Virus record (IMG/VR): IMGVR_UViG_3300036770_002122
Coordinates: 29,198 to 93,197 of that record
DNA: 64,000 nt
Origin: a virus
Reading direction: 5' to 3' (one strand)
The notes below the pieces were generated by a model. The model was not told the DNA's origin, did not search any database, and saw only the letters and a program-made list of their open reading frames with translations. The translations under genes were made by a program, and so were the position numbers. This document shows positions 13,152 through 62,685 of this stretch, piece by piece (position 1 is the stretch's first letter; the number at the start of each line of letters is the position of its first letter).

Positions 13152-14279
13152 ATGAAGCAGAAATCAGAAATTAAAGAGTTGAAGCCCAAAGACTTTGACT
13201 TAAAGCACATTGGTCCTGAACCCAGTTTCAATAGTGAAACGGTTGTTACAGAATGGGAACTTGCTAGGGCGTTCAATTGGTATAATCACTTTTACGATAA
13301 CAAGGACGCTAAAGAATTCATTGCCCAATATCTAGATGTTGCGGGCAAGCAACAAACTGCCAAAACTATTCGTCGCGTCAATGATCGTCAGGTCAAAACT
13401 ACATATGGTTGGTTAGCACGTTGTATCGTTCGCGGCGGTGTTGTTAGTAATGACACTCTTGCTAAACTTCAGAACGAGATTGGTCGTCTTGTGTCGTTTG
13501 TCACAGTTGATACAAGTGATGATGAAGCCCCGGTAAGCAATCGCCCTAACGTGCAGGAGATCATGCGTGAGCGTACTCAGCAAGTTGGTGGTGAACTTGA
13601 GGGTTTGTGGGACGACTATCTAAAGAATGGTGCCGGTAAGGAAGGCATCAAGGCAATGGATGTGTTGTCTCAACGCAACATTTTGTCGCAGCACGTACCT
13701 ATGTTGGTCAGTGCTTGGCAATCTAAGTTGGATGAGTACAATGAAGTTGCTAGTGGCAAAGATGAACAGTTAAACGAAGCCTATGAGCGTTTCGGTAAGA
13801 TTCAATTGCGTAACATCATTAGTGCTATTGAAACTGTCATTGCCGATTTAAACGCATATATCGGTATGAAGAAATCAGGCAAGAAGCCCCGCGCTAAGAA
13901 GCCTGTACCGGTCGAGAAGGTTGTCAAGCGTCTCAAGTATCTCAAGACATTCAAGTTAGAGAAACTTGAACTTGAAAGTGTCAGCCCCACTAAACTTCAC
14001 GGTTGCAGTGAAGCATGGGTCTACGATACTAAGAAGCGCAAACTTCATCACTATGTTGCCGATGAGTACACTAAGAGCATTGGTGTCAAGGGCAATACTA
14101 TTCTTGGTTTCTGTACTAAGGAATCGCAGATCAAAACATTGCGTAAGCCTGAAGAACAGATCAAGCAGATTATGGGTAGCAAACCTGCTGCACGTAAATT
14201 CTTTGATGGTATCAAAGCAGTTGGTGCAGCACCTAACGGACGATTCAACGCTAACATGATTATACTGAGGGCTTTCTAA
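13152..14279 (+). CDS. Conserved T4-like hypothetical protein (basic)
   Basis: 375 aa; AFNWYN..YD.KD and C-terminal KTLRKPEEQ..PNGRFN. Confidence 0.75.
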   Translation: MKQKSEIKELKPKDFDLKHIGPEPSFNSETVVTEWELARAFNWYNHFYDNKDAKEFIAQYLDVAGKQQTAKTIRRVNDRQVKTTYGWLARCIVRGGVVSNDTLAKLQNEIGRLVSFVTVDTSDDEAPVSNRPNVQEIMRERTQQVGGELEGLWDDYLKNGAGKEGIKAMDVLSQRNILSQHVPMLVSAWQSKLDEYNEVASGKDEQLNEAYERFGKIQLRNIISAIETVIADLNAYIGMKKSGKKPRAKKPVPVEKVVKRLKYLKTFKLEKLELESVSPTKLHGCSEAWVYDTKKRKLHHYVADEYTKSIGVKGNTILGFCTKESQIKTLRKPEEQIKQIMGSKPAARKFFDGIKAVGAAPNGRFNANMIILRAF

Positions 14280-28600: not shown

Positions 28601-30617
28601 ACCAGTAAAGCCAACTCCAACTGCAATGCCACAGCAGCCACAAATTAATGTCGGCGGTGTACCTGCAACTAAACAAGATGGCTCATCAAACATGGGTGCT
28701 GTAATGCAAAGCCGCGCAAACTTAAGCAATATTGGCCAGCAAGCAGCACAACAAATGCAAGAAGATGATTTAGATGAAATGGATAAAGGTGATTGGTTGA
28801 AGCACAAAGCAAAAACTACACCAGGTGACACATTTAAGGCATTTGGTCAAACATTCAAAGATAAAGACGTTTCAGAAACATATGCATTTGAAGATTTAGA
28901 ACAACAATTAAACGCTTTATTAGAAAATAAAGTTGTTAATGAAGGTCTTTCGGTATCGATGTCAACTGGGCAACAAGGTAGCCCAGACAGCGTAAGCGTA
29001 ACTGCTACAGACGGTGATAGTGAAAAACTATTATCATTCATTAAGCAAGTAGGTTTGGGCGGTTTATCAGATGCAGAACCAATTAATACTCCTGCTGAAC
29101 CAGCAGTTGTTGCAACAGTAAGTGATTACGGCGCGCCTAAATTCAGCGGTCATGAAATGCCAAGCATGGATGATTTGCTATCAAAATTAACAGGCATCGA
29201 ATCACATGACGATCATGGTCATGATCATGGGCATGGTGATGAAGAATCAACATGTAACGAATGCGGCATGATGGAAAGTTCATGCGGCTGCGAAAAAAAA
29301 ACTGAAGAAGTTTTAGAAACTACAGTTGAAGCGCAGGTAAAATCAGATCAACTTGACGAAGCAGCACCTGCATTAGCAGCACTAGGTAGATTAGCAGGTC
29401 TTGCAGGACGCGCAGCATTAGCAAATCCTGGTAAGGCTGCTATGCTTGCAAAGCGTGCCGCAAGCGCATTCAAAAAAGATAAAGAAGAAGTAGACGAAAC
29501 CGAAACATTAGATCAACGCGAATTTATGGTCGCTGAAGATGACGGTGAAGGCTATGAACAAAGTCAAGCAGATGCAGGCAAGATTGATAGCGCATTAGCA
29601 TTAAGCGGCGCATCAAAGGGCGGCGCAACTAACGAAGATGCCATGGATCTAGGCTTAGGCGGATCAATGAAAGATATGATGTCAAAATTAGGAGACATTG
29701 AAAATAAATCAATGTCAACTAATACTTCAAATGACACATCATCATATACTGTAGATGGCAAACCAGCAACTAAAGATGAATATGATAATGCTATGAAGAA
29801 TTTCAAGATGCCAACAATGCCAACAATGCCGACTATGCCAAAAATGCCTAACATGCCAGCAGGTATGGAACTTCCTGAATTGCCAGAACTTCCTGATTTA
29901 TCTGATTTAGGCATGGGCGCTGCTGGCGGTGATGACAATGTAAGCATGTCAAGACAAGAATATAATGATCTTATCAATGCAGCATTACCTGGCGTAACTG
30001 TTACAGGCAAAAGAGTAGGTGGCGACGATGAGTTGCAACCAGTAACTATTGCTAGCAAAAAGAGAGAATTGCCTGGAAGTGATGATGAGTTACAACCAGT
30101 AACTATTCAATCAAAGAAGCGTGAAATGCCTGCAGGTGATGACACATTTGTAGCAAAAGCAGATGATGCTGAAATTGCAAATATTAAAAAGTCACTAGAC
30201 GACATGATGAAAGATATCATGCCTAGAATGGCAGGTCGTGACCAAGATTGGTTAGACGCTCAACAAGATCAACAACTAGCAACACAAGGTGCTGCAGGAG
30301 ATTGGTTCAGAAGTGCATTAGGTAGAGGGGCAAATTTAAATGATCCTAATACTAGAGCAAAACTTGATCGTCTTGCTAAGAAAGCACAAACTAATGAGCA
30401 AGAAAAGTTAGATGAATGGGCAAATGATGCAGGTCAAAAAGGCACAGATGCAGCATTCACCCGTGATACAGACTTTATGACTCAAACTATCAGCGGTGGA
30501 TTGAACAAGCCTAAGTCAACAGGTCAAACTACAATCCCTGTTATTGCTGGTCAAGAAGCAAGAGAAGGCGACGAAGATGTGCAAGCCTGGAAGAAATTAG
30601 CAGGTCTAGCGAAGTAA
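25674..30617 (+). CDS. 1647-aa low-complexity modular protein, candidate internal head polyprotein
   Basis: Many (L/I/V/M)-x-E sites separating unrelated segments; DxDxDG motif; short tandem repeats. Confidence 0.6.
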   Translation: MEFKKFLELVNEAESTAEKDDKAKKAGEEVTKDIEYDEGHKGSDDERAEKAGKKVAADIRYDDKKDKKKSLKEYFEETEQEIINEGQFPIPVVGPDNKPIAGQSGFLNVSVPGQAGVAVNDMLRRLGARGLSIILPPNRIQQQQQQQALAAAKRASVQTSGKQVAEETVDEGIDDVVKLGTKYGDDIAKQFSNFASGFKNPQGAMNLPNQSLASKAGAATSRGGPAIGAGAGAAGMAALGGDDKPAADNKPAAVAADNKPAAAAPAAPEAPAAPAEPVAPEAPAVDTAPPAPPSDEIDRIQQLAGMSDEEKYGKVGAEIRKLDPEAYKNRPRDYQGNIDLLNKLRAQKADDTTAPPAADTKADDKPADAKADEKPADAADASDELEPVTVTGKRTQPADQDKEGDAELGRLLNLSGANTYDELGNWLKNRDKPAGSTEEPKAAEPAKEPESKPEEPAVDAAGEEPAVDAAGEEPAPAAAIEPKTSYRVVDPSTGRARNVSKEKYDQMVARGQIDKDKGLDYQFKVRDPDGSIRTVKQGDPDWQKYADQAEKTVASNYNQLQGEPEGEEGEEGEEKSGRPSLFRRLFNIGKDDEGYYLGKKRGRDNAPDDTEEKSELSEGKLAEKWEGDVKVEPTGEYKNKTKAQLQAMLARLHKTGPHKKGSKEAKQQSQINFALRAKGGWKKGEGAAMKSVEEDATAAQPSKLQQRHQDNFAAKQQAAHSKQDSQAKDYLASKGVSDQNAAKLMAKPMREEKVDEKFASQQQAKLMYAAAGDKKVAKKTGVSQDVAKEFIKKSHGQKVSKLPKKVKEAEIPKSGPDYGAGLGAGRSDNVLEAKPDFIDLDKDGDKKESMKKAAADKKKKKVNESMSNLLKAAYSEGYVHGLREQPCRVKHYQDMEEAKHYFEGYKCGLEECYGLVPGRGYVDEESSQDVVDNMASFGAVGVEENTNQNMAAVPVQKAQAGQVNTSATNPAPQQNVPVKPTPTAMPQQPQINVGGVPATKQDGSSNMGAVMQSRANLSNIGQQAAQQMQEDDLDEMDKGDWLKHKAKTTPGDTFKAFGQTFKDKDVSETYAFEDLEQQLNALLENKVVNEGLSVSMSTGQQGSPDSVSVTATDGDSEKLLSFIKQVGLGGLSDAEPINTPAEPAVVATVSDYGAPKFSGHEMPSMDDLLSKLTGIESHDDHGHDHGHGDEESTCNECGMMESSCGCEKKTEEVLETTVEAQVKSDQLDEAAPALAALGRLAGLAGRAALANPGKAAMLAKRAASAFKKDKEEVDETETLDQREFMVAEDDGEGYEQSQADAGKIDSALALSGASKGGATNEDAMDLGLGGSMKDMMSKLGDIENKSMSTNTSNDTSSYTVDGKPATKDEYDNAMKNFKMPTMPTMPTMPKMPNMPAGMELPELPELPDLSDLGMGAAGGDDNVSMSRQEYNDLINAALPGVTVTGKRVGGDDELQPVTIASKKRELPGSDDELQPVTIQSKKREMPAGDDTFVAKADDAEIANIKKSLDDMMKDIMPRMAGRDQDWLDAQQDQQLATQGAAGDWFRSALGRGANLNDPNTRAKLDRLAKKAQTNEQEKLDEWANDAGQKGTDAAFTRDTDFMTQTISGGLNKPKSTGQTTIPVIAGQEAREGDEDVQAWKKLAGLAK
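27033..27098 (+). repeat. 27-nt in-frame tandem repeat (EEPAVDAAG x2.4)
   Basis: gaagaaccagccgttgacgc repeated at 27-nt spacing. Confidence 0.8.
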
Positions 30618-43167: not shown

Positions 43168-43710
43168 ATGACTAAGCAATTAAATGAAGGACTGGACTAT
43201 CATGATATGAAAGGCATGATAGACCCTACTGTATCAGTAGATGAATATGCTGCTAGAATGGGCGAAGATAGCGATGTTGTTACACTTAGTTTTATTGTTA
43301 ACAGTCATCTTGCTGCTGACGATCTAGTAAGTTGGTTAGAATTAGGTTATGATTTTATATTAGATGCTAGTGTTAGTGAAGGCGAATTAGAACCAAACAA
43401 ATGGTTAGTATTCGTAGAAATGAAACGTAGATCAAACGTACCAAATAAAATTTTAGAAATATTAAAAGATTTAGAAACATTAACTGATATAGGATTAAAA
43501 GATTGGGAAATTAAAGTTGACGACAGCACACATGATGCTAATTTAGATGTATTAAAACAAGTTATAATAACTAACCCTAACCAATATAAAATAGAAAAGG
43601 GAAATGAAGAAGAATTAAATGAAATGCGTCAAATAGCAGGATTAGAAAATAAAAAAGTTTACGAGATTGATGACGAAATTAGAAAGTTTATAACTAACGC
43701 AGGTTTGTAA
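43168..43710 (+). CDS. Conserved hypothetical protein, candidate head protein
   Basis: MTKQLNE|G N-terminus; ends in ..AGL. Confidence 0.65.
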   Translation: MTKQLNEGLDYHDMKGMIDPTVSVDEYAARMGEDSDVVTLSFIVNSHLAADDLVSWLELGYDFILDASVSEGELEPNKWLVFVEMKRRSNVPNKILEILKDLETLTDIGLKDWEIKVDDSTHDANLDVLKQVIITNPNQYKIEKGNEEELNEMRQIAGLENKKVYEIDDEIRKFITNAGL

Positions 43711-52008: not shown

Positions 52009-52033
52009 AGCCCCGAAAGGGGCTTTTTCTTTT
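52009..52033 (+). terminator. Rho-independent terminator
   Basis: agcccc-GAAA-ggggct followed by a T-rich run. Confidence 0.9.
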
Positions 52034-52087
52034 GTGTAGCGGATATCCGAAATATAGATAAATACTATATTATTGCGGATTACTTAT

Positions 52088-53269
52088 ATGAAATTTAATG
52101 AAATATTTGAAAGTACAGTCGCAGGTTCAGTAGCGTCAGTAGCAAAACCATTAGGCGAACTTCAAACAAGAAGCGAAACTCCACCTAAAAGTCCTAAAGT
52201 TATAAAAAACAAAAAGAAGTACGCTAATCAAATCAGCGAAAGTAAAATGAAAGATTTGGCCTATGATATTCAGCATTTAGATGCAGGAAACTTCATGAAA
52301 AAGTATGGTCAACCTAAAGATTATTTTACTAAAAAGTTAGGTAAACCTCCTGTAAGTGAAGCAGAGTTACAAGAAGATGATTTAATTGTGTTACCTGGCA
52401 TGCGCCGCATGAAAGATACTAGTTTTATTCCGCATGATAAAGATCGTCGTGACCATGAAGTAGAAATGGCACGTAGCGAACTATATGCTGCTGCTAAAGA
52501 TGCAATGCGTATCTATAAGATTATAGAAAATCGTACAGAAGATGAAGGTCTAATGGGTTGGCAGCAATCATATATCACACTCGCTAGTGATTATCTAAAC
52601 AGTGTAGCAGATAGTTTAGAACATCATGCAGCCACAGAAGGTGCAGGTGTTATTGCAGGTGGACAAGTTCAAGAGATTAGTGACTTCAAGCGTAGAGAAA
52701 TTGAGCAAGAGTTACGTCACGAAAAAAATAATTATGCTGTAGCAATAGACGGCAAAGTATGGAAAATTTTTCCTGATCAACAGCAAGCAAATAATATAGC
52801 ACGCTCACTGCAAAGAAAGGGTAAGAAGGCAACAGTACATTTAGCCGAGGCAAGAAGAGACCATTATACAACTAGAGTTGATGACGAAGGAAACGTAGTC
52901 AAAGTATATCCACCTAGCGGTCCAAAAACACAAAAGGCTTATGTCAAATCATTAGTCAAAAATTTAGGTTCATCACATATTGGTAAACGCGGTGAAAGCC
53001 CAAGAGGCGATAAAGTAGGCAAAGGTGCTAACCTAAAAGGAAGTGCAGTTGCTAAACTAAGTGGCGGAATGTCTAAAGTTGCTGAAGAAAAATGCCCACA
53101 CTGTGGCGGCGAATTAGTAGATGAATCATTGATGAATGAAAAGAAAGATGCTTGTTATAGCAAAGTAAAGAGCCGTTATAAAGTTTGGCCCTCAGCATAC
53201 GCAAGCGGCGCATTAGTCAAGTGCCGTAAAGTTGGTGCAAGTAACTGGGGCAACAAGAGTAAAAAATGA
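52088..53269 (+). CDS. Modular candidate internal head protein (start revised from 52073)
   Basis: MKFNEIFE|S; modules DHEVEMAR..., KDACYSKVKSRYKVWPSAYASG; late promoter 52058-52064. Confidence 0.65.
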   Translation: MKFNEIFESTVAGSVASVAKPLGELQTRSETPPKSPKVIKNKKKYANQISESKMKDLAYDIQHLDAGNFMKKYGQPKDYFTKKLGKPPVSEAELQEDDLIVLPGMRRMKDTSFIPHDKDRRDHEVEMARSELYAAAKDAMRIYKIIENRTEDEGLMGWQQSYITLASDYLNSVADSLEHHAATEGAGVIAGGQVQEISDFKRREIEQELRHEKNNYAVAIDGKVWKIFPDQQQANNIARSLQRKGKKATVHLAEARRDHYTTRVDDEGNVVKVYPPSGPKTQKAYVKSLVKNLGSSHIGKRGESPRGDKVGKGANLKGSAVAKLSGGMSKVAEEKCPHCGGELVDESLMNEKKDACYSKVKSRYKVWPSAYASGALVKCRKVGASNWGNKSKK

Positions 53270-53631
53270 GATATCGTCAAATACTAGAAGCATGTTGGAA
53301 AGGATACACACAGAAAGGCATGAAGTCTAAAGGTGGTCGTATGGTTCCAAACTGTGTTCCAGTAAGTGAACAAGAATTAGAAGAAGATTTACGCAAATGG
53401 TTCAAAGAAAAGTGGGTTCGTTTTGGACCAGACGGAAAGATTCGAGGTGATTGTGCTAGAGGCAGTAGTAGCGAGGGCAAGCCAAAGTGTTTGCCACAGA
53501 GTAAGGCACATAGTTTAGGAAAGAAAGGTCGAGCAAGCGCAGCAGCACGAAAGCGCAGAGAAGATCCTAATCCAGAACGTAGTGGCAAAGCAAAGAATGT
53601 GGCAACTAAAAGTAGCAGAGATAAAAAATGA
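53266..53631 (+). CDS. Basic Cys-containing two-module protein
   Basis: MRYRQILE|ACWKGY..VPNCVP; LEE|DLRKWFKEKWV..KPKCLP. Confidence 0.7.
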   Translation: MRYRQILEACWKGYTQKGMKSKGGRMVPNCVPVSEQELEEDLRKWFKEKWVRFGPDGKIRGDCARGSSSEGKPKCLPQSKAHSLGKKGRASAAARKRREDPNPERSGKAKNVATKSSRDKK

Positions 53632-56600
53632 GTAAAATTTTTGAAGGTCTAGACAAAGCAGCATCACGCCAAATACAAAATATTGTGCGTCAAAACCCTA
53701 AAGGTAGTGCTGACGAAAAAATGCTATTACAGCGTTATATAAAGACACCAATAGTTCAAGATTTTAACTTATCTCCTGAAGAATGGATAGGTCAGGCAAC
53801 AAAGTGGTTAGCAAGTAATCAAAATGATATTAAGAAAAACTATCCTGATGTTGATACAAGCGATCTAATTGATTTAGCAACTAAAATGTATGAAGATTTT
53901 CTTGCAATGCAAGGACAATTAGAAGAAGCACGCTGGAAAGGCAAAGTTATTGGCGGAATTACAGGTGGTCCGTTAGGAGCATTGGCAGCAGATCAAATTG
54001 AAAAATATATGAATGACCCTGAATATGCAGCGCAGGTTAATAAAAAATTTAGCGATTTAGTCAATGCAGCGAAGGGTAAGGCTCCAGATACGGCAGCACC
54101 TACTGCCTCACAAGCAGCAGAAAAACCAGCTGCAATACCTACAAAAGATAAACCAAGAGCAAGAGTTAATCCAGAAACAGGTGCGTTAGAACCTGTTAAA
54201 ACAACTCAGCCGGCATCAACAAAAACAACTAAACCAAAAGCAACTAAACCAAAAGCAACTAAAAAACCTACACCGTCTGTTGAACCACCACAAACTTTAG
54301 GACAGCAGATAGGTAAAAAAGGTTATGAACCTGATGTTCGTACTTGGAGAAACGTAGGTGACAAGGCTAGTGATGTAGCAAAGGTTGCTAGCAAGACACC
54401 AATTGGTAGAAAACTAGCAGGTTTAGGCGCAGCAGCAGGTATAGTTGGCGGAATCGGTTCACAAATGTATGCGGGTATAGAAGATAAGTTTAAAGAATTA
54501 ATCGGTAAAGATGCCGATAAACCAAAACCTGCACAAGCAGAAATTCCTCCTAACAAACCAGCCGCAAGTGCGCCAAATAAAGTTGAGACACCTCCTCCCC
54601 CACCACAATCATCTCAACCAGCAGTTGAACCTGAAAGTGATATTTTAGGTGCACCGGGAGCCGACACAGCAGAACGCACTACGCCTTTAGACGGACCAAC
54701 CGGTGGCACACCTCCAATAGGTACATCGTCAGAACCAGATATTTTAGGCGCGCCAGGTGCAGATGTTTCTGAACCAAATAGTCCTATCGATAGAGATAGA
54801 TCAAGAGATAGATCAACAGACGCAGTAATACCACAAAGACCAAAAAAGATTGAATACGATCAGCCCGAAATGCCATTTGAAAATACAGATGCAGTCGCAG
54901 TTCCCCAACCAACAGGCGGTGCTGTTAAGAAAGTAGCAAAAACTGTAGGTAAGGGAATTTTACCTGCTGCAACAGCATTAACTGTTGGCGATGATTACAA
55001 AGATTTACAAAAACGATTAGGTAGTAAAGATTATACAGGGGCAGCATTAAGAGGTGTTGCAACTACTACTGGTCTTATACCTCATTTGGGCGCACAAGCA
55101 GTATCAGCAGGTGCAGAAGGATTACTGGCTATGAAAGATAATCCTGAATATTTTAAAAATTATAAGCCAACTAGTTCAATTGGTAGAGGCATTAAAGAAG
55201 GCTACAGCGCAGGTGCAGTTGGTGGTACTGGATTAGGCGAGGGGGATAAACCACCTAAAGCAGGCTTCAATAAAAACCCGCACAAAGTAGGTCCAGGAAC
55301 TAGTAAAGACGATTACGAATATAAAAACTTTATTCCACGTGATAGAAAAGAAAAAGGCGAAGAGTGGGCAATTGCTAGAGATATCAAAAACGTAAACAGT
55401 AGATTAGGAAAGAAAAAGCCAAAAGAATTGAACACAGGTTTTTATAAAAACTATCTAGGCAATCGCCCAATACGAGAAGAAGAAATTGACGAGGCAGGTG
55501 GTCGTTTAGGTGCAATCAATACTGTAGCACAATTGTTTAAATCAATTGCTAAAGGTGGTGACCCTGTTGATATGGATATTCAACAGAGACAAATGAATGC
55601 ATTAATGCGCAAATATAATATTGATTATAAAGACATAGGTATTAAAAAACCTGCTGCTCAAACACCAAAACAAACAGCAAGTCCTGACATGAAGCCGGGT
55701 CAATATAAAACATGGGATCAAACACTTCCATCATTTGACGATGTACCTGCTGCAGGACAATATAAAACATGGATGCCAGATCCTTTAGAAGAAGTTAGTA
55801 ACTTTTTAGCATTGAAACAAAGAGACAACGAATTCAAAAAAATATTTGGTACTACTCCATTATACAAAGAAGGTGATAAAATAATCACAAAATTTAGTGA
55901 CACAACACCTAACTTTAAAGGTACAGTTGTGAATTTTGATGAAAAAACAAGAAAAACTACTATTAAAGGAGAAGATGGTACATTGTATTTTGTACATGCT
56001 CAAAACTTACAAAAAGTAAAAGAAACTATTAATACCCCGGGTGGTATGGGTCAAGCATATCGTAAACTAAAATTAAAACCTGATGAAATGGATGAAGGTA
56101 TTGCCGGCGCAGTTAAAAGTGGCACAAAGCGTATTGCTACTATGCGTAAATATTTTGCCGGTGACGAAACTGCGAAAGATCCAACAGATACAAGTATTCA
56201 ACGTGCTTGGTTCGCTGATCCTAAAAATCAATCACAGTTACAACCTAAGACAAATCAACAACCACAACCAGTAAAGGAATATGATGCAAATTTGATTAGT
56301 CAAATTGCAGCAGCAAATCAAATTAAAAATCCTGATTTAATTTATCCAGGACAAAAAATTACATTGCCATCTGGGGACAGTTATACTGTACAAAAAGGTG
56401 ATACATTAGGTGATATCGTTTATAATCGTAATAGGCCAGCAGTACAAGAGCCGGTCATCGCTCAACCTAAAATTGAAGTGCCTAAAGAAGTTCCTGTTAT
56501 AGAACCTAAGGCAGAACCACGTATCAGCAACAGATATCCTGATAGCGGTGTAAGTTCTGATAGTAAGTTTGTTGATGTTAGAAACAATCCAGGAAACTTA

Positions 56601-57275
56601 CGAGGTACAGATGCATTACGCAAACCAGGATATGTATTAGATAAAGCAGTTGGGTTTGATAAGAATGGATTTGCTATATTTAATAGTCCTGAAGATGGTA
56701 AAGAAGCAATGCGTAGACAACTAGAATTAGATGCATTGAAAAGGGGTATGACTGGTAGACAATTGATCAATAAATATGCCCCACCAAGTGACAACAATGA
56801 CACTGACGCATATATAAAAAATACTTTTGGTGAATTAGGATTAGATCCTGATAGTAAGATCAGTCCAGAAGATTTAGAAAAAATTCAACGTTTGATGGTT
56901 AGACAAGAGCATGGCAAAGAAGGCATGAATTTTTACTATCCACAACGTAGACAAATGGTAGCAAAGGTGAACGAAATGGAAATATTACAAAAATTTTTAG
57001 ATAAGAATATTGAAAAGGGTGCAGAAAAATTAGCACAAAAAGAAAAAGAAAAGGCTGCTAAAGAAAGACCAATACCAAATCCTAATGCAGAATATCAAGG
57101 TCCTAAATCAGCAGCATATGATATCAGTTTGCGTAAGCAAAGTGTTGATCCTGTTGATGTTGCAATGGCAGCACTTCCTAAAGATATTGAAGATGCTAAA
57201 AAGTTAAAGCAACAAGCAGGACAGGCACCAAAAGAAAGTTCAATATTAAAAGGAATTAAAGGACACAAATTTTGA
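53628..57275 (+). CDS. 1215-aa modular protein with SH3/KOW-like, LysM and lysozyme-like modules
   Basis: NPDLIYPGQKI/YTVQKGDTL; RNNPGNLR..KYAPP..NDT.AY; many x-x-E sites. Confidence 0.7.
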   Translation: MSKIFEGLDKAASRQIQNIVRQNPKGSADEKMLLQRYIKTPIVQDFNLSPEEWIGQATKWLASNQNDIKKNYPDVDTSDLIDLATKMYEDFLAMQGQLEEARWKGKVIGGITGGPLGALAADQIEKYMNDPEYAAQVNKKFSDLVNAAKGKAPDTAAPTASQAAEKPAAIPTKDKPRARVNPETGALEPVKTTQPASTKTTKPKATKPKATKKPTPSVEPPQTLGQQIGKKGYEPDVRTWRNVGDKASDVAKVASKTPIGRKLAGLGAAAGIVGGIGSQMYAGIEDKFKELIGKDADKPKPAQAEIPPNKPAASAPNKVETPPPPPQSSQPAVEPESDILGAPGADTAERTTPLDGPTGGTPPIGTSSEPDILGAPGADVSEPNSPIDRDRSRDRSTDAVIPQRPKKIEYDQPEMPFENTDAVAVPQPTGGAVKKVAKTVGKGILPAATALTVGDDYKDLQKRLGSKDYTGAALRGVATTTGLIPHLGAQAVSAGAEGLLAMKDNPEYFKNYKPTSSIGRGIKEGYSAGAVGGTGLGEGDKPPKAGFNKNPHKVGPGTSKDDYEYKNFIPRDRKEKGEEWAIARDIKNVNSRLGKKKPKELNTGFYKNYLGNRPIREEEIDEAGGRLGAINTVAQLFKSIAKGGDPVDMDIQQRQMNALMRKYNIDYKDIGIKKPAAQTPKQTASPDMKPGQYKTWDQTLPSFDDVPAAGQYKTWMPDPLEEVSNFLALKQRDNEFKKIFGTTPLYKEGDKIITKFSDTTPNFKGTVVNFDEKTRKTTIKGEDGTLYFVHAQNLQKVKETINTPGGMGQAYRKLKLKPDEMDEGIAGAVKSGTKRIATMRKYFAGDETAKDPTDTSIQRAWFADPKNQSQLQPKTNQQPQPVKEYDANLISQIAAANQIKNPDLIYPGQKITLPSGDSYTVQKGDTLGDIVYNRNRPAVQEPVIAQPKIEVPKEVPVIEPKAEPRISNRYPDSGVSSDSKFVDVRNNPGNLRGTDALRKPGYVLDKAVGFDKNGFAIFNSPEDGKEAMRRQLELDALKRGMTGRQLINKYAPPSDNNDTDAYIKNTFGELGLDPDSKISPEDLEKIQRLMVRQEHGKEGMNFYYPQRRQMVAKVNEMEILQKFLDKNIEKGAEKLAQKEKEKAAKERPIPNPNAEYQGPKSAAYDISLRKQSVDPVDVAMAALPKDIEDAKKLKQQAGQAPKESSILKGIKGHKF

Positions 57276-57430
57276 CACACTTAAGTGAAAATAATATAAG
57301 TTATTTTGCTCATTTAAAAAGAGCATGGCGTTGGGCATTTATATTATTAGTACATGGAATATTTCCAGAAATTTGGAAAACAAAAGTAAGTGATGAAATT
57401 TGTAAAAAAGATCAGGGGAATAACAAATGA
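57272..57430 (+). CDS. 52-aa protein (DUF6356-like) missing from the ORF track
   Basis: TTG start overlapping TGA; HLSENNISYFAHLKRAW..LVHGIFP. Confidence 0.6.
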   Translation: MTHLSENNISYFAHLKRAWRWAFILLVHGIFPEIWKTKVSDEICKKDQGNNK

Positions 57431-57546
57431 GACATTATAAATTTGAAGTACAATGCAAAAGTGGTCAAATTAAAGTATTTGAATGCGATGCAATAAATTT
57501 CCGTGAAGCAAGAAAATTGATGGACGCATTTATACAGGTAAACTGA
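57427..57546 (+). CDS. 39-aa protein missing from the ORF track
   Basis: MRHYKFEVQCKSG...FIQVN; AGGGG RBS; ATGA overlap. Confidence 0.55.
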   Translation: MRHYKFEVQCKSGQIKVFECDAINFREARKLMDAFIQVN

Positions 57547-57547
57547 C

Positions 57548-57988
57548 ATGTTAGCAGACAAATTAAAAGTATTATTAGCAAGTTCATATGCTTTTGTTAT
57601 TAAGGCACAGTATTTTCATTGGAATGTTGAAGGTCCAAACTTCCCGCAATACCATAAATTTTTCGGTAAATTATACGAAGAAGTTTATGCAAGTTTAGAT
57701 CAAACAGCAGAATACATTCGTATACTTGATAGTTATACACCGGGTAGTTTTGAGCGTTACAAAGAATTATCAATACTTCCCGATCAAACTATGGTACCAC
57801 GTGCTGAACTTATGTTTGCTGAATTGCAGAGCGACAACGAATTATTATTAAGTTTATTACAAGAATGCTTTGTCATAGCCGGTGAAGAGAATCAAAGAGG
57901 CATTGAAAATTATCTAGCAGAACGAATTGATGCTCATGGCAAACATGGTTGGATGATTAAGAGCGTTCTTAAAAAAGATAGACAGTAA
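57548..57988 (+). CDS. dps: Dps / ferritin-like DNA protection protein
   Basis: FHWNVEGPNF.QYH..F..LYEE, D..AE.IR, H.KH.WM. Confidence 0.92.
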   Translation: MLADKLKVLLASSYAFVIKAQYFHWNVEGPNFPQYHKFFGKLYEEVYASLDQTAEYIRILDSYTPGSFERYKELSILPDQTMVPRAELMFAELQSDNELLLSLLQECFVIAGEENQRGIENYLAERIDAHGKHGWMIKSVLKKDRQ

Positions 57989-57992
57989 TGAA

Positions 57993-58565
57993 ATGCGCAT
58001 ACGTGATCTTACTAATGAGGCAAGTCCAAATACACTAGAAGGAAGTTTAACAGACGATCTAGTGACTAGTAAGCAATGGTTGGCAAATAAGTTAAAAGAA
58101 GGTTTAGGTAATAAATGCGCAAGAACTATCTATGTATTAGGTAGTTGGTATGGTAATCTAGCATATATCTTACAAAAAGCCGGCATCGTCTTTGATCATA
58201 TCGTATTGATAGATATTGACGATAAAGTATTAAAGACCAGCGAACGTTTATTAAGACCATTATTTAATAATGGTCAATTAATATTTTTACATACAGATGC
58301 CAAAGATGTAGTTTATGATAAACCCGGTATAGTAATCAACACAAGCATCAATGATATGAGTACAGATTGGTACGATGCTGTGCCAGAAGGTATGCCGGTC
58401 GTTGTCCAAGGTCGTGATAGTGTCAGTGGTAGTAAAACTAAAATTGCTGATATGGAACAGTTTGATGATATGTTTCCAATGACTAGCATAAACTATCTAG
58501 GTAAAAAAGAACTGGAAGATCCAGAAACAGATTACACTCGCTATATGAAGATTGGTAGAAAATAA
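57993..58565 (+). CDS. Class I SAM-dependent methyltransferase-like protein
   Basis: VLGSWYG, IDID, VINTS, RYMKIG; N-terminus MRIRDLTNE|A. Confidence 0.7.
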   Translation: MRIRDLTNEASPNTLEGSLTDDLVTSKQWLANKLKEGLGNKCARTIYVLGSWYGNLAYILQKAGIVFDHIVLIDIDDKVLKTSERLLRPLFNNGQLIFLHTDAKDVVYDKPGIVINTSINDMSTDWYDAVPEGMPVVVQGRDSVSGSKTKIADMEQFDDMFPMTSINYLGKKELEDPETDYTRYMKIGRK

Positions 58566-59290
58566 TGCGTAGTAATGAATTCATATCAGAAAAATGGTCT
58601 GCGAAGTACAAGCGCAGTATCAACTGTAACAATCCAAAAGGATTCAGTCAACGTGCCCATTGTCAAGGACGTAAGAAAACTAATGAAGAATCAGTTGACG
58701 AAGTACGCAGGGATAAATTGGGTAAAGATGTCAATGCTAGATTTCGTGATGCAGGCTATAAAAAAGTAGGATCGGGCATAGATGCAAACGTATGGATGAA
58801 AGATTTGGGTACCGTAGTAAAAGTAATTATGCCCGAACTTGACCCAGATATGAGCATCAATCGTATGCAGACGTTTTATCAGTTTGCTAAACAACATCCA
58901 GAAATAGAAAATTTGCCCAGATTTAAAAAAGTAAACGGACGAGAGTTTTTAAAGTTTAATTTGGGTGGCGTTCCATTTATACAGTTTAATATGGAACAAC
59001 TTTATCCCATTAAAAAGGGCTCATTGGATGAATATGTTGTATGGTTTTTGTCGGGAGAGATTGACAAAAGTTGGAATACAGCATATAATAACTTAATTAA
59101 TTTTCCAGATTTTCGTAAAAAATTCAAAAACATCGACCTTGATAGTTTACAGACATACAAGAAGTTTTTTCAAGTGTTTAGTTTGCTTTACAAATTAGGT
59201 AGAAAAAACAAGTGGGGTTGGGATGCACATACTGAAAACGTGATGAAACGCGGTGACGGCACATTAGTCGTTACTGATCCCTGGGCATAA
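58565..59290 (+). CDS. Protein-kinase-fold enzyme fused to a basic two-Cys peptide
   Basis: VGSG...VW, VVKV, MEQL, DAHTENVM, VTDP. Confidence 0.7.
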   Translation: MRSNEFISEKWSAKYKRSINCNNPKGFSQRAHCQGRKKTNEESVDEVRRDKLGKDVNARFRDAGYKKVGSGIDANVWMKDLGTVVKVIMPELDPDMSINRMQTFYQFAKQHPEIENLPRFKKVNGREFLKFNLGGVPFIQFNMEQLYPIKKGSLDEYVVWFLSGEIDKSWNTAYNNLINFPDFRKKFKNIDLDSLQTYKKFFQVFSLLYKLGRKNKWGWDAHTENVMKRGDGTLVVTDPWA

Positions 59291-59317
59291 ATATATACAT
59301 ATAGTTGAGGAATTATT

Positions 59318-59707
59318 ATGAAGATTTTTGAAGTTATTGAAGCAAAGAAACTTGCAGGAAGTCAGGATGATCTTGACGATGTTATGGATAAGCCAGAAGA
59401 TCCAGATGCTGATAAAGTTCCTCACATTTTAATGCAATTGCGTAAAGCATTGGATGTTGACGGTAATTATCCTATTACTTTTAAAGATGGTAAGAAAGCA
59501 AAGTTGGGTATGCCTGAAATTGTTATGTTTGTCAAAAAGTATATGGGTCTAAATCCACAAGACAAAGAAGCATTACAAACACAAGCAAGTAATAGTCTAG
59601 AAGGCTTCATGGCTGCACTAAAGCAAGATTTCAAGAAACCAGAACTACCAAAAATCAAGGGTAGTCGTTATATGACTGGCTTTGCAGGAGACTTAGACGA
59701 CAAATGA
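59318..59707 (+). CDS. Candidate internal head protein
   Basis: MKIFEVIE|A; HILMQLRKALD..G..ITFKDG; late promoter 59287-59293. Confidence 0.6.
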   Translation: MKIFEVIEAKKLAGSQDDLDDVMDKPEDPDADKVPHILMQLRKALDVDGNYPITFKDGKKAKLGMPEIVMFVKKYMGLNPQDKEALQTQASNSLEGFMAALKQDFKKPELPKIKGSRYMTGFAGDLDDK

Positions 59708-60132
59708 AAAAGTTACTAATTTTGGCATTAGCCGCATTATCAGCGAGTGTATCAGCACAAACTCTATACAACTATAAAGTTGTCAAGGTAAGTGACGGTG
59801 ACACAATACAGTTTGAAGCACCATTTATGCAACAATATCTAGGTCTAAAGCCAGTATTGGCATTGCGTGTATTGGGTGTTGACACACCAGAGAAAGGTGG
59901 TCGCGCACAATGTCCTAGTGAAAATGAACTAGCACAAAAGGCTAGCGCATTCACTAAAGATGCGGTAGCAAAAGCAAAGACAATTCAATTTGAAATCAAA
60001 GACCACGATAAGTTTGGTGGTCGTGTATTGGGCGATGTATTTGTAGACGGCCAACGTTTATCAGAACTATTGATCAAAAATGGTTATGCCCGTGCTTACT
60101 TTGGTGAAAAGAAGCAGAGTTGGTGTAACTAA
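59704..60132 (+). CDS. Thermonuclease (SNase) with signal peptide
   Basis: MKKLLILALAALSASVSA; DGDTI, RVLGVDTPE, DKFGGRVLG, L..NGYAR.Y. Confidence 0.9.
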   Translation: MKKLLILALAALSASVSAQTLYNYKVVKVSDGDTIQFEAPFMQQYLGLKPVLALRVLGVDTPEKGGRAQCPSENELAQKASAFTKDAVAKAKTIQFEIKDHDKFGGRVLGDVFVDGQRLSELLIKNGYARAYFGEKKQSWCN

Positions 60133-61137: not shown

Positions 61138-62685
61138 ATGAATCTATCCAAGAAGTTCGTTGTCTGGGCTATGATAAGCCTCGGCACAATTTCCGTTGCC
61201 TATGGTCAGGCTACAGAAACTATTAGTACAGTAACAACTACTAATACAACTACCACAACCAACACAAATAACAATACAAATACCACAACGGAAACAACAA
61301 ACAATACCAATACAAATACAAATGTGAATACTACCACTAGTACAACAACTAGTGATAATACCAACACAAATTTCAATACAAATACTAGTACTAATACCAA
61401 TACTAACACTAATACGAATGTGAATACCAACACAACTACTAGTGATAACACAAATACTAATTTCAATACAAATACTAGTACCAACACAAACACTAATACT
61501 AATGTGAACACAAACACAAGTACTAGTGACAATACTAATACTAACTTCAATACTAGTACTAGTACCAATACTAACACCAATGTGAATACAAATAACACTA
61601 CTAGTGATAATACTAATACTAATTTCAATACGAATAATACTACTAGTACAAACACTAATAATAATACAAACAACACAACGGTCAATAGTACAAATACTAA
61701 TACTAACAATAACAACAATGTGAATACTAGTACCAGTACTAATACTAACAATAACACAAACAACAACACAAATACCAACTATAATATCAATAGTGGTACA
61801 CAGACATTCAACAATAATAACAATACAACTAGTAACAATACCAATACCAATTTGAACACAAACAATACTACAATCAATAGTAATAATGTGAACACAAATA
61901 ACAATACTAGTACAGTTACTAGCAACAATACCAACACAAATAACAGCACGATCAATAGCAACAACACAAATAATAACAACAATGTGTCGGTATCAACAAA
62001 CACTAATAATAACAATAGTGTAAGCACAAATACAAACAATAATAACAATGTCAATACCACTACTAGCAACAACACTAATGTCAATAAAAATGAAAGTGTT
62101 TCAACTAGTAACAATAATAATGTCAATGTCAGCACAAGCACAGCAGTGAACAAAAACGAGAATGTGAACAAGAGCGAAAGCACTAGTCAAAGCAATGTAA
62201 AGACAGAAAACACAAACACAAACATCAACCGTAATGAAAACATCACAAAGGTAGAGCAAGAAATCAAGGCTCCACCAGCAAGTGCTATCGCTCCAATGAT
62301 CAGCACATATAGCCAAGATGTTTGCGTGAGTGGTGTCAGCGGTGCTGTTCAGACACAAGTTATTGGTATGAGCGCAGGTAAGGCTGTGCGTGACATGAAC
62401 TGCGAACGCTTGAAGTTATCCAAAACTCTTTACGATATGGGTATGAAAGTAGCAGCAGTTTCACTAATGTGCCAAGATGAGCGTGTATTCAAGGCTATGG
62501 AAATGGCAGGTACACCTTGCCCATATATGGGTAAAATTGGTAAGGACGCCACACAACAGTGGACTGAAAATAAACAAGAACGTCCAGATCAAAAGAAAGG
62601 TTGGTTCCGTAGTATTTTCGGCAGTAATGACGAGACTAAAGCAGAAAATACAGAAGAGATGCCACTAGCGGATCCAGTAGGATGA
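61138..62685 (+). CDS. Secreted Asn/Thr-rich repeat protein with Cys-containing C-terminal domain
   Basis: Signal peptide ..SVAYG|Q; about 340 aa of TN/NN repeats; PPASAIAP..C..NCERLKLSK..CQDERV..GTPCP. Confidence 0.8.
   Translation: MNLSKKFVVWAMISLGTISVAYGQATETISTVTTTNTTTTTNTNNNTNTTTETTNNTNTNTNVNTTTSTTTSDNTNTNFNTNTSTNTNTNTNTNVNTNTTTSDNTNTNFNTNTSTNTNTNTNVNTNTSTSDNTNTNFNTSTSTNTNTNVNTNNTTSDNTNTNFNTNNTTSTNTNNNTNNTTVNSTNTNTNNNNNVNTSTSTNTNNNTNNNTNTNYNINSGTQTFNNNNNTTSNNTNTNLNTNNTTINSNNVNTNNNTSTVTSNNTNTNNSTINSNNTNNNNNVSVSTNTNNNNSVSTNTNNNNNVNTTTSNNTNVNKNESVSTSNNNNVNVSTSTAVNKNENVNKSESTSQSNVKTENTNTNINRNENITKVEQEIKAPPASAIAPMISTYSQDVCVSGVSGAVQTQVIGMSAGKAVRDMNCERLKLSKTLYDMGMKVAAVSLMCQDERVFKAMEMAGTPCPYMGKIGKDATQQWTENKQERPDQKKGWFRSIFGSNDETKAENTEEMPLADPVG

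Follow-up and report, generated by a model that had tools for sequence, protein, structure and literature searches.

A leader-tagged gene cassette in a jumbo T4-superfamily phage as probable protease-processed internal head cargo

The prohead protease of phage T4, gp21, cuts after L/I-X-E, and a capsid targeting sequence (CTS) of about 10 residues is sufficient for packaging; the internal proteins (IPs) and Alt of T4 are ejected (PMC9026906). The CTS may be the means by which T4-like phages load varied proteins into their capsids (PMC9026906). We analysed a 64,000-nucleotide (nt) stretch of virus DNA, referred to here as the window (positions 29,198 to 93,197 of IMG/VR record IMGVR_UViG_3300036770_002122), in which a cassette at 52088-59707 contains six genes whose products start with a short leader ending in Glu. 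Judged from sequence comparison, it is probable that this cassette encodes internal head cargo of a jumbo T4-superfamily myovirus, of the T4 type and protease-processed, like IPI-III and Alt.

In the proposed pathway the cassette genes would be expressed late, and an N-terminal leader of 6-10 residues (M-R/K-x-x-E/D/Q-F/I-I/L-x-E) would target each product to the prohead scaffolding core. A gp21-type serine protease would cut after the Glu of [L/I/V/M]-x-E and remove the leader, and the larger proteins would be diced between modules at the same motif. The pieces (very basic two- and four-Cys mini-proteins, LysM and lytic-like domains, an S-adenosylmethionine (SAM) methyltransferase, a kinase-like protein and others) would remain in the head with the DNA, and some of those released, at least, would enter the cell with it.

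Comparison with described systems

Like IPI, IPII, IPIII and Alt of T4, the proteins studied here have a short N-terminal propeptide ending in L/I-x-E (7-19 residues in the T4 system), and the leader form M-R-A-x-E-F-I-x-E resembles the T4 sequence M-K-T-Y-Q-E-F-I-A-E. As with the T4 internal proteins, the cargo is unrelated from protein to protein, partly basic and partly enzymatic, and Peptidase_S77 is present in the clade. The mature parts, in contrast, have no sequence homology to the T4 internal proteins, and there are dozens of cargo families where T4 has four. Also unlike T4, many modules make up each large protein, the putative cut motif stands at every junction, and a module may be found alone or within a polyprotein. 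Among the predicted cargo are a SAM methyltransferase, a kinase-like enzyme and a LysM/lytic domain.

Phages phiKZ, 201phi2-1 and SPN3US are similar to the proposal in having a jumbo head with many internal or ejected proteins and a gp21-related protease that cuts after Glu, sometimes at several sites. The motif of the phiKZ/SPN3US type is A/S/G-x-E, and its propeptides are often longer than 100 residues (PMC5694885). Here, position P3 (the cut following the Glu at P1) is I/L/V/M/F, the leaders have 6-10 residues, and no cargo homology to that type was seen. Since P3 is I/L/V/M and the leaders are this short, the system belongs with the T4 type and not with the phiKZ type. Polyvalent proteins of phages and conjugative elements, as summarised in PMC7824862 from Iyer et al., are large and combine diverse enzymatic and binding domains. 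They are similar in their presumed entry together with the DNA, to act in an early conflict with the host; they differ in being described, in that summary, as single multidomain proteins with no leader or regular protease motif at junctions, and in their domain repertoire.

The T4-like cyanomyophage gene T4-GC119/110 (Syn19_101, S-MbCM6_093, S-SM1), located between gp16 and gp17, encodes true homologues of the WFKEKW...PKCLP, KDACY...WPSAYA and CWKGY modules as a tandem series and is followed downstream, as in the window, by a SNase-type endonuclease. Unlike the window, this is a single gene of 270-500 amino acids (aa), the M-R-x-x-E-F-I-x-E leader is absent from the two products examined, and the junctions are often T-N-E. 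To our knowledge, T4-GC119/110 has never been interpreted as protease-cut cargo.

The first-pass annotation of the window had put the cassette forward as the strongest candidate for an undescribed system. That goes too far, as both the CTS and gp21 principle and the loading of varied proteins have been published (PMC9026906); the novelty is in the scale and in the form as polyproteins and a pool of modules. Because the principle is known, the locus is of value for how broad the system is, for its organization as modular polyproteins and for what the cargo consists of. No description of this leader and junction system for jumbo phages or cyanophages was found in the literature searched.

Leader, cargo and packaging genes

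The window comes from a 93-kb IMG/VR fragment with a CheckV completeness of 27%. Long tail sheath, tube, fibre, ClpB-like and DnaJ-like genes are present, and the sheath is nearest to those of Atu_ph07, PA5oct and Rak2/CBB-type jumbo myoviruses (40-46% identity), which places the phage in the T4 superfamily as a jumbo member. Megablast of the region against deposited phage records gave no DNA-level match. Comparisons were made with a related set of 82 IMG/VR loci (1300 open reading frames, ORFs), retrieved via one cassette protein with its leader among the search patterns; with a complete 352-kb relative (G003, 438 ORFs), which supplies an unbiased leader count; and with five large relatives that share the cassette, four of them rated 100% complete. 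The leader pattern was calibrated on phage T4 (113 kb, 166 ORFs).

All six genes singled out by the first-pass annotation are present with the N-termini it gave, which are MKFNEIFE/S (52088), MRYRQILE/A (53266), MSKIFE/G (53628), MRIRDLTNE/A (57993), MRSNEFISE/K (58565) and MKIFEVIE/A (59318), the slash marking the predicted cut. Five of the six leaders have I/L/V at P3 and end in I/V-x-E at residues 6-9. The motif in its loose form ([ILV]-x-E within the first 12 residues) is common, with matches in 22 of the 110 genes of the contig, and one is also kept, simply through conservation of the N-terminus, in the neighbouring, non-cargo ClpB-like and 49477 families. Loose-motif counts and loose-motif conservation were rejected as a cargo test, since cargo and non-cargo families were not separated by them.

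A strict leader was defined as M-[KR]-x(1-4)-[DEQN]-[FILVM]-x-x-E, the consensus common to the unrelated cassette proteins. It matched 6 of 110 contig genes, five of them among the seven cassette genes at 52088-59707 (Fisher p = 1e-6). The related loci had 167 matches in 1300 ORFs, where shuffled N-termini or internal positions would give 4-5, a count enriched by design because the loci were retrieved with the cassette protein and the leader pattern. G003 had 11 matches in 438 ORFs (~1.5 expected), five of which fell in its 11-kb cassette (hypergeometric p = 4e-7). Four of the 166 T4 ORFs matched, including the true gp21 substrates ipII and ipIII; ipI, whose propeptide is longer, was not caught. 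The shared tag claimed for the six genes is thus highly non-random in its strict form, but commonplace in its loose one.

The sole strict match outside the cassette on the contig is a 375-aa gene (13152-14279, PHROG 11903, M-K-Q-K-S-E-I-K-E/L) that adjoins virion genes; its product could be a further substrate or a chance match. Far from the cassette in G003, two adjacent small leader genes at 102342-103108 (L104; M-R-A-K-E-F-I-V-E and M-R-A-T-E-F-V-F-E) suggest a second small cargo locus. The hypothetical 54-aa gp61.1 of T4 (L096, 18966-19130, minus strand) starts with M-K-T-F-K-E-F-I-K-E, nearly the IP capsid targeting sequence, and T4 vs.6 starts with M-K-A-Y-Q-I-L-E.

At least 28 families, unrelated across their first 120 mature residues, are found behind the leader. 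A database search with the 241-aa cassette protein returned the leader and its KWSxKYKRS module fused to many Pfam domains, among them a zeta-toxin/AAA-type kinase, GH19 with LysM, dCMP deaminase, a ParB-like domain and several DUFs. The 9-residue leader was compared in 70 distinct DNA versions: several synonymous codons were used for Arg, Glu, Phe, Ile and Leu, replacements were conservative, and the DNA upstream was unrelated. The codon variation and unrelated upstream DNA indicate that selection on the leader acts at the peptide level, and a DNA-level recombination element as its source was rejected on the same grounds. Both AF2 (AlphaFold 2) models, one of the 190-aa and one of the 241-aa protein, show the leader as a disordered stretch that is not part of the fold. 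The tags are, on indirect evidence, CTS-like in the T4 sense, as the first-pass annotation had proposed; they are selected as peptides and carried by many unrelated proteins.

The first cassette gene (52088-53269, plus strand, as are all cassette genes below) encodes a 393-aa protein with the leader MKFNEIFE (52088-52111), a widespread N-domain and a C-terminal basic module with four Cys (residues 331-393, nt 53078-53266) that is common to cyanophage T4-GC119. It matched PHROGs 727, 38880 and 3477, has a mature isoelectric point (pI) of 9.5, and keeps the leader and an E/S-or-T-T-x-A-G-S boundary in 23 non-redundant homologues. The second product, a 121-aa basic protein (53266-53631, leader MRYRQILE), carries a two-Cys 'ACWKGY...' module and a 'WFKEKW...PKCLP' module; its mature pI is 10.2, it matched PHROG 727 and others, and it has homologues in cyanomyophages. 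The 129-aa acidic protein encoded last (59318-59707, leader MKIFEVIE) falls solely in virus-only hypothetical clusters, with homologues that keep the leader as MKIQEIME, MKITEFLTE or MKINEILTE. Atlas look-ups found no function for the N-domain of the 393-aa protein or for the 129-aa protein. Each of the small modules contains 2-4 Cys, and all are basic, with pI values of 9.3-10.7.

In the 393-aa family, the mature protein is predicted to start with S/T-T-x-A-G-S-I/V-A (nt 52112-52150 in the window). The predicted mature start of the gp23-type capsid protein of relatives (L090, L092) is similar, S-S-A-G-T-T-T-A-G-N-I-A-T. The likeness could reflect mimicry of the cut-site substrate, or coincidence.

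Searches of PDB sequences with the 190-aa and 241-aa proteins gave no match, so fold prediction was needed. The 190-aa protein (57993-58565, leader MRIRDLTNE at nt 57993-58019) gave a model with pLDDT 89 and residues 1-10 disordered, for which all top Foldseek matches were methyltransferases (E down to 3e-10, template modelling (TM) score about 0.6); by this model, it has a Rossmann-like, class I SAM-dependent methyltransferase fold with a Gly-rich motif I. L-G-S-W-Y-G-N is invariant in its family, and the E/[AET]-S-P boundary is kept, P3 being mostly V/L/I. The 241-aa protein (58565-59290, leader MRSNEFISE at nt 58565-58591) consists of a two-Cys basic module, KWSAKYKRS... (residues 10-40, nt 58592-58684), and a protein-kinase-like domain. 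Its model (pLDDT 80) had kinases and aminoglycoside phosphotransferases as the top Foldseek matches (E = 7e-5) with a modest TM of 0.3-0.38, and there was a weak match to PHROG 15752 (T7 gp0.7-type kinase, E = 9e-7). Invariant in the family are the G-x-G loop (G69/G71), the predicted catalytic Lys K86, the D-x-H-x-x-N loop (D220-H222-N225) and D-P-W with the predicted metal-binding Asp (D238). As modelled, the protein is a member of the protein-kinase-like superfamily with a bilobal fold. The earlier calls of methyltransferase, kinase, wall-binding or lytic protein and basic peptides hold at the level of fold or family.

The cyanomyophage homologues provide a link to virions. T4-GC119 was detected in purified S-SM1 virions with 13 peptide counts, and its neighbour T4-GC403 with 60 counts (Sullivan et al. 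2010, PMC3037559 Table S8). Our tblastn match in S-SM1 falls inside the T4-GC119 gene.

Peptidase_S77 (gp21 type) was found in all five large cassette-sharing relatives, and in those whose flanking DNA was read (G002-G005) a gp22-like scaffold protein dense in L-x-E and a gp23-type capsid protein adjoin the protease gene. The 93-kb, 27% complete fragment that holds the window gave no match in searches for Peptidase_S77 and Gp23 and has no portal gene either, and Peptidase_S77 was not found in five closer fragmentary relatives, including L005. Because 100-200 kb separate the protease gene from the cassette in complete genomes, a fragment that lacks it is uninformative. A gp21-like protease, which the first-pass annotation had expected in the genome, is thus seen in the relatives and not on the fragment itself, and the window's phage presumably encodes one as they do. 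The capsid protein of relatives keeps L-x-E/(S/N)-(A/S)-S-A-G about 21 residues before a conserved VIRR...GVQPM block; the known cut of T4 gp23 (E65/A) lies 33 residues before that block. In a MAFFT alignment of T4 gp23 with the capsid proteins of relatives the two cut sites did not fall in one column, and the site is therefore called near-homologous and is not proven.

Module junctions and alternative readings

The largest cassette protein has 1215 aa (53628-57275, leader MSKIFE). Ten internal sites had been listed for it, and all exist (after residues 100, 418, 524, 538, 622, 722, 799, 823, 884 and 1116). Of seven homology-block boundaries, six are no more than 4 residues away from an [LIVM]-x-E site (p = 4.5e-4 compared with random Glu positions). 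The relative L005 is without blocks 539-622 and 723-799, which are missing exactly from Glu to Glu. From the boundary statistics and these deletions, the junctions after residues 100, 538, 622, 722, 799 and 884 are supported (Glu codons ending at nt 53927, 55241, 55493, 55793, 56024 and 56279); the other four are without support, and one of them, MPFE/N, is off-motif with Pro at P3. The string '...QGQLEE' is continued by four different sequences in four proteins.

Domains of the 1215-aa protein were said to fall between such sites, and LysM and the lytic-like domain do (884/941 and 959/1116). LysM occupies residues 890-914 (nt 56295-56369; Pfam PF01476, E = 1.6e-7, 31.6 bits against a cut-off of 20.9). 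The lytic-like domain (residues 967-1098, nt 56526-56921) matches a PHROG endolysin/tape-measure lytic region and has 35% identity to the epsilon15 structural 'putative lytic transglycosylase'; its residues 986-1078 (nt 56583-56861) match residues 9-93 of PDB 9vvp_L, 'Gp29' (1295 aa), at E = 4e-5. No Pfam catalytic family was matched by residues 967-1098. A tape-measure reading of the whole protein was rejected, as the PHROG match spans the LysM/lytic part alone (residues 825-1131). The module boundaries and block indels lead instead to a chain of exchangeable modules.

An 'S-S-I-L-(K/E)-G-(L/I)' element heads large proteins of relatives (L053, L031, L033 and others) as M-S-S-I-L-K-G-L-x-N-E, recurs between modules ('...KKNE-SSILEGIEQADE', then SLHDWF...) and ends some proteins, including the 1215-aa protein (SSILKGI, nt 57234-57272). 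The Glu directly upstream of it usually has no hydrophobic residue at P3. The element looks like a leader-like spacer repeated within polyproteins.

The swapping of modules at x-x-E boundaries, proposed earlier as a check, was seen in related genomes, both in the L005 blocks and in two modules followed across proteins. In 8 contexts at N-termini and in 16 inside proteins of 400-1400 aa (up to 1445 residues), L/M/V-x-E stands immediately before the ACWKGY module. Nearly every one of 119 database proteins with the KWSxKYKRS module has [IVLM]-x-E just ahead of it; rare copies of the module start straight after Met without the motif, which is therefore a property of the junction rather than of the fold. 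One module can be a stand-alone tagged gene in one phage and part of a polyprotein in another. We propose that leader or spacer, L-x-E and module may be treated by evolution as one cassette. The wider claim that any domain flanked by x-x-E is packaged was overstated, given how common the motif is by chance and that 4 of the 10 listed sites are without support.

Several observations weigh against the assignment as head cargo cut at its junctions. The leader of the gene at 57993 ends in T-N-E, with Thr at P3, although its family has mostly V/L/I, and the leader of the 1215-aa protein (I-F-E, residues 4-6) differs from the M-S-x-I-L-K-G-L-x-N-E of its family. Shuffled versions of this protein have 13 +/- 3.3 [LIVM]-x-E sites and the protein itself has 15; the site count, being at chance level, was rejected as evidence. 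Many cyanophage junctions are T-N-E and not L/I-x-E, and from the S-SM1 detection, which establishes presence in the virion, neither head location nor processing follows. The missing protease gene on the window's fragment and the design of the related set, noted above, count on the same side.

In the main rival reading, the leaders alone are removed and the internal [LIVM]-x-E strings are acidic linkers of intact multi-domain internal proteins that are packaged whole. Such a reading would accommodate the chance-level site count, cyanophage junctions that are T-N-E or free of the motif, and the [LIVM]-x-E inside the CPHC...WPSAYA module, where a cut seems unlikely. We nevertheless hold it to be unlikely, as the hydrophobic P3 and the Glu at P1 are kept directly before modules in ~90% of independent contexts while P2 and upstream positions vary, blocks are inserted or deleted exactly from Glu to Glu, and the same modules also exist as separate tagged genes. 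Cutting at multiple sites, moreover, is normal for this protease family, as T4 gp22 and gp67 and the phiKZ and SPN3US proteins illustrate.

A second rival, in which the leader is some other conserved N-terminal element (for docking, regulation of translation or stability, or secretion) and the proteins are not head cargo, we consider improbable. It would be in keeping with the Dps-like and SNase genes of the cluster, which have no leader, and with late-type TAAATA signals, which also precede non-structural genes such as the ClpB-like gene. The leader, against this, is closely like the T4 CTS (E-F-I-x-E) and always ends in Glu, the same motif stands at internal junctions, a homologous module chain is present in S-SM1 virions, and relatives have the T4-type set of protease, scaffold and capsid; the codon data oppose an element at the RNA or DNA level. 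That the tags are chance hydrophobic-x-Glu strings near the N-termini of an AT-rich, Glu/Lys-rich proteome is hardly credible: the 22 loose matches among 110 genes, and the unrelated conserved proteins that keep one, would suit it, but it is rejected by the clustering of the strict leader (p = 1e-6 and 4e-7), by 167 matches against about 4.5 expected and by the placement of junctions (p = 4.5e-4).

Beyond the cassette itself, we tentatively suggest that group-2 jumbo phages and T4-like cyanomyophages could share a combinatorial head-cargo system, a possibility that we rate somewhat below even. Dozens of units, each a leader-like spacer with L-x-E and a module, would occur in polyproteins or as stand-alone genes, be diced in the capsid by the prohead protease and be injected as a pre-made cocktail of effectors. 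The pool of modules would include Cys-stabilised basic mini-proteins, kinases, methyltransferases, deaminases and wall hydrolases. Such a system would amount to an evolvable platform that delivers proteins in nature, on a scale far exceeding the four T4 internal proteins.

Expression signals, neighbouring genes and significance

An intrinsic-terminator-like hairpin on the plus strand (52010-52033, GCCCC-GAAA-GGGGC followed by a T run) closes the upstream unit, and a late-promoter-like gATAAATA (52057-52064, plus) lies 24 nt before the first cassette ATG. A second late-type TAAATA (59288-59293, plus) is found 25 nt before the 129-aa gene. For 21 of the 41 plus-strand copies of TAAATA, a gene start follows within 40 nt (p = 4e-19); tube, fibre and virion-protein genes are among those so preceded, and so are some non-structural genes, as mentioned for ClpB-like. 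The full T4 late promoter, TATAAATA, has 3 copies in the window, none before the cassette; only the shorter TAAATA is informative here. Late expression of the cassette fits these signals. Over the whole window TAAATA is depleted (58 copies, 115 expected), and the copies near gene starts usually read (A/T)-G-A-T-A-A-A-T-A-(C/T).

Two genes of the cluster have no leader. The Dps/ferritin-like gene (57548-57988, plus; Pfam Ferritin E = 2.8e-18, PHROG 3636) is conserved within the cassette in relatives. Its product in the window has no [LIVM]-x-E in the first 13 residues, and the MLxxxLK start of 22 non-redundant homologues is the conserved start of the ferritin fold and not a leader. The SNase-type nuclease gene next to the cassette (59704-60132, plus; Pfam SNase E = 6e-13) has a signal-peptide-like N-terminus and is conserved in relatives; it follows the module genes in the same order as does the endonuclease T4-GC228 of cyanomyophages, which there lies just before gp17. 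The 273-nt gap after the 1215-aa gene (57272-57547) contains two tiny ORFs, one of 52 aa with a TTG start (57272-57430) and one of ~39 aa that starts M-R-H-Y-K-F-E-V-Q-C (about 57428-57547). The 515-aa protein encoded at 61138-62685 begins like a signal peptide, continues with extreme Asn/Thr-rich repeats (N-T-N-T-N...) over ~350 residues and ends in a Cys-containing C-terminal domain.

Outside the cassette, a 180-aa protein (43168-43710, plus) had also been listed as tagged, and this call stands up. It matched PHROG 13138, 'virion structural protein', at E = 3e-20, and L-x-E/G-L-D-Y is kept in 9 homologues with leaders of varying length; the copy in the window ends in L-N-E/G. The product is likely a further protease substrate.

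If the head-cargo reading is true, giant environmental phages would pre-load their heads with a large and rapidly reshuffled repertoire of enzymes and DNA-binding mini-proteins that act before phage transcription. A simple rule (leader plus L-x-E) would then predict, for uncultured T4-superfamily phages, the cargo of the virion and candidate effectors of anti-defence or host takeover, and would explain widespread 'hypothetical' genes of cyanophages and jumbo phages. The natural leaders and junctions would also serve T4-type protein-packaging tools that are already in engineering use.

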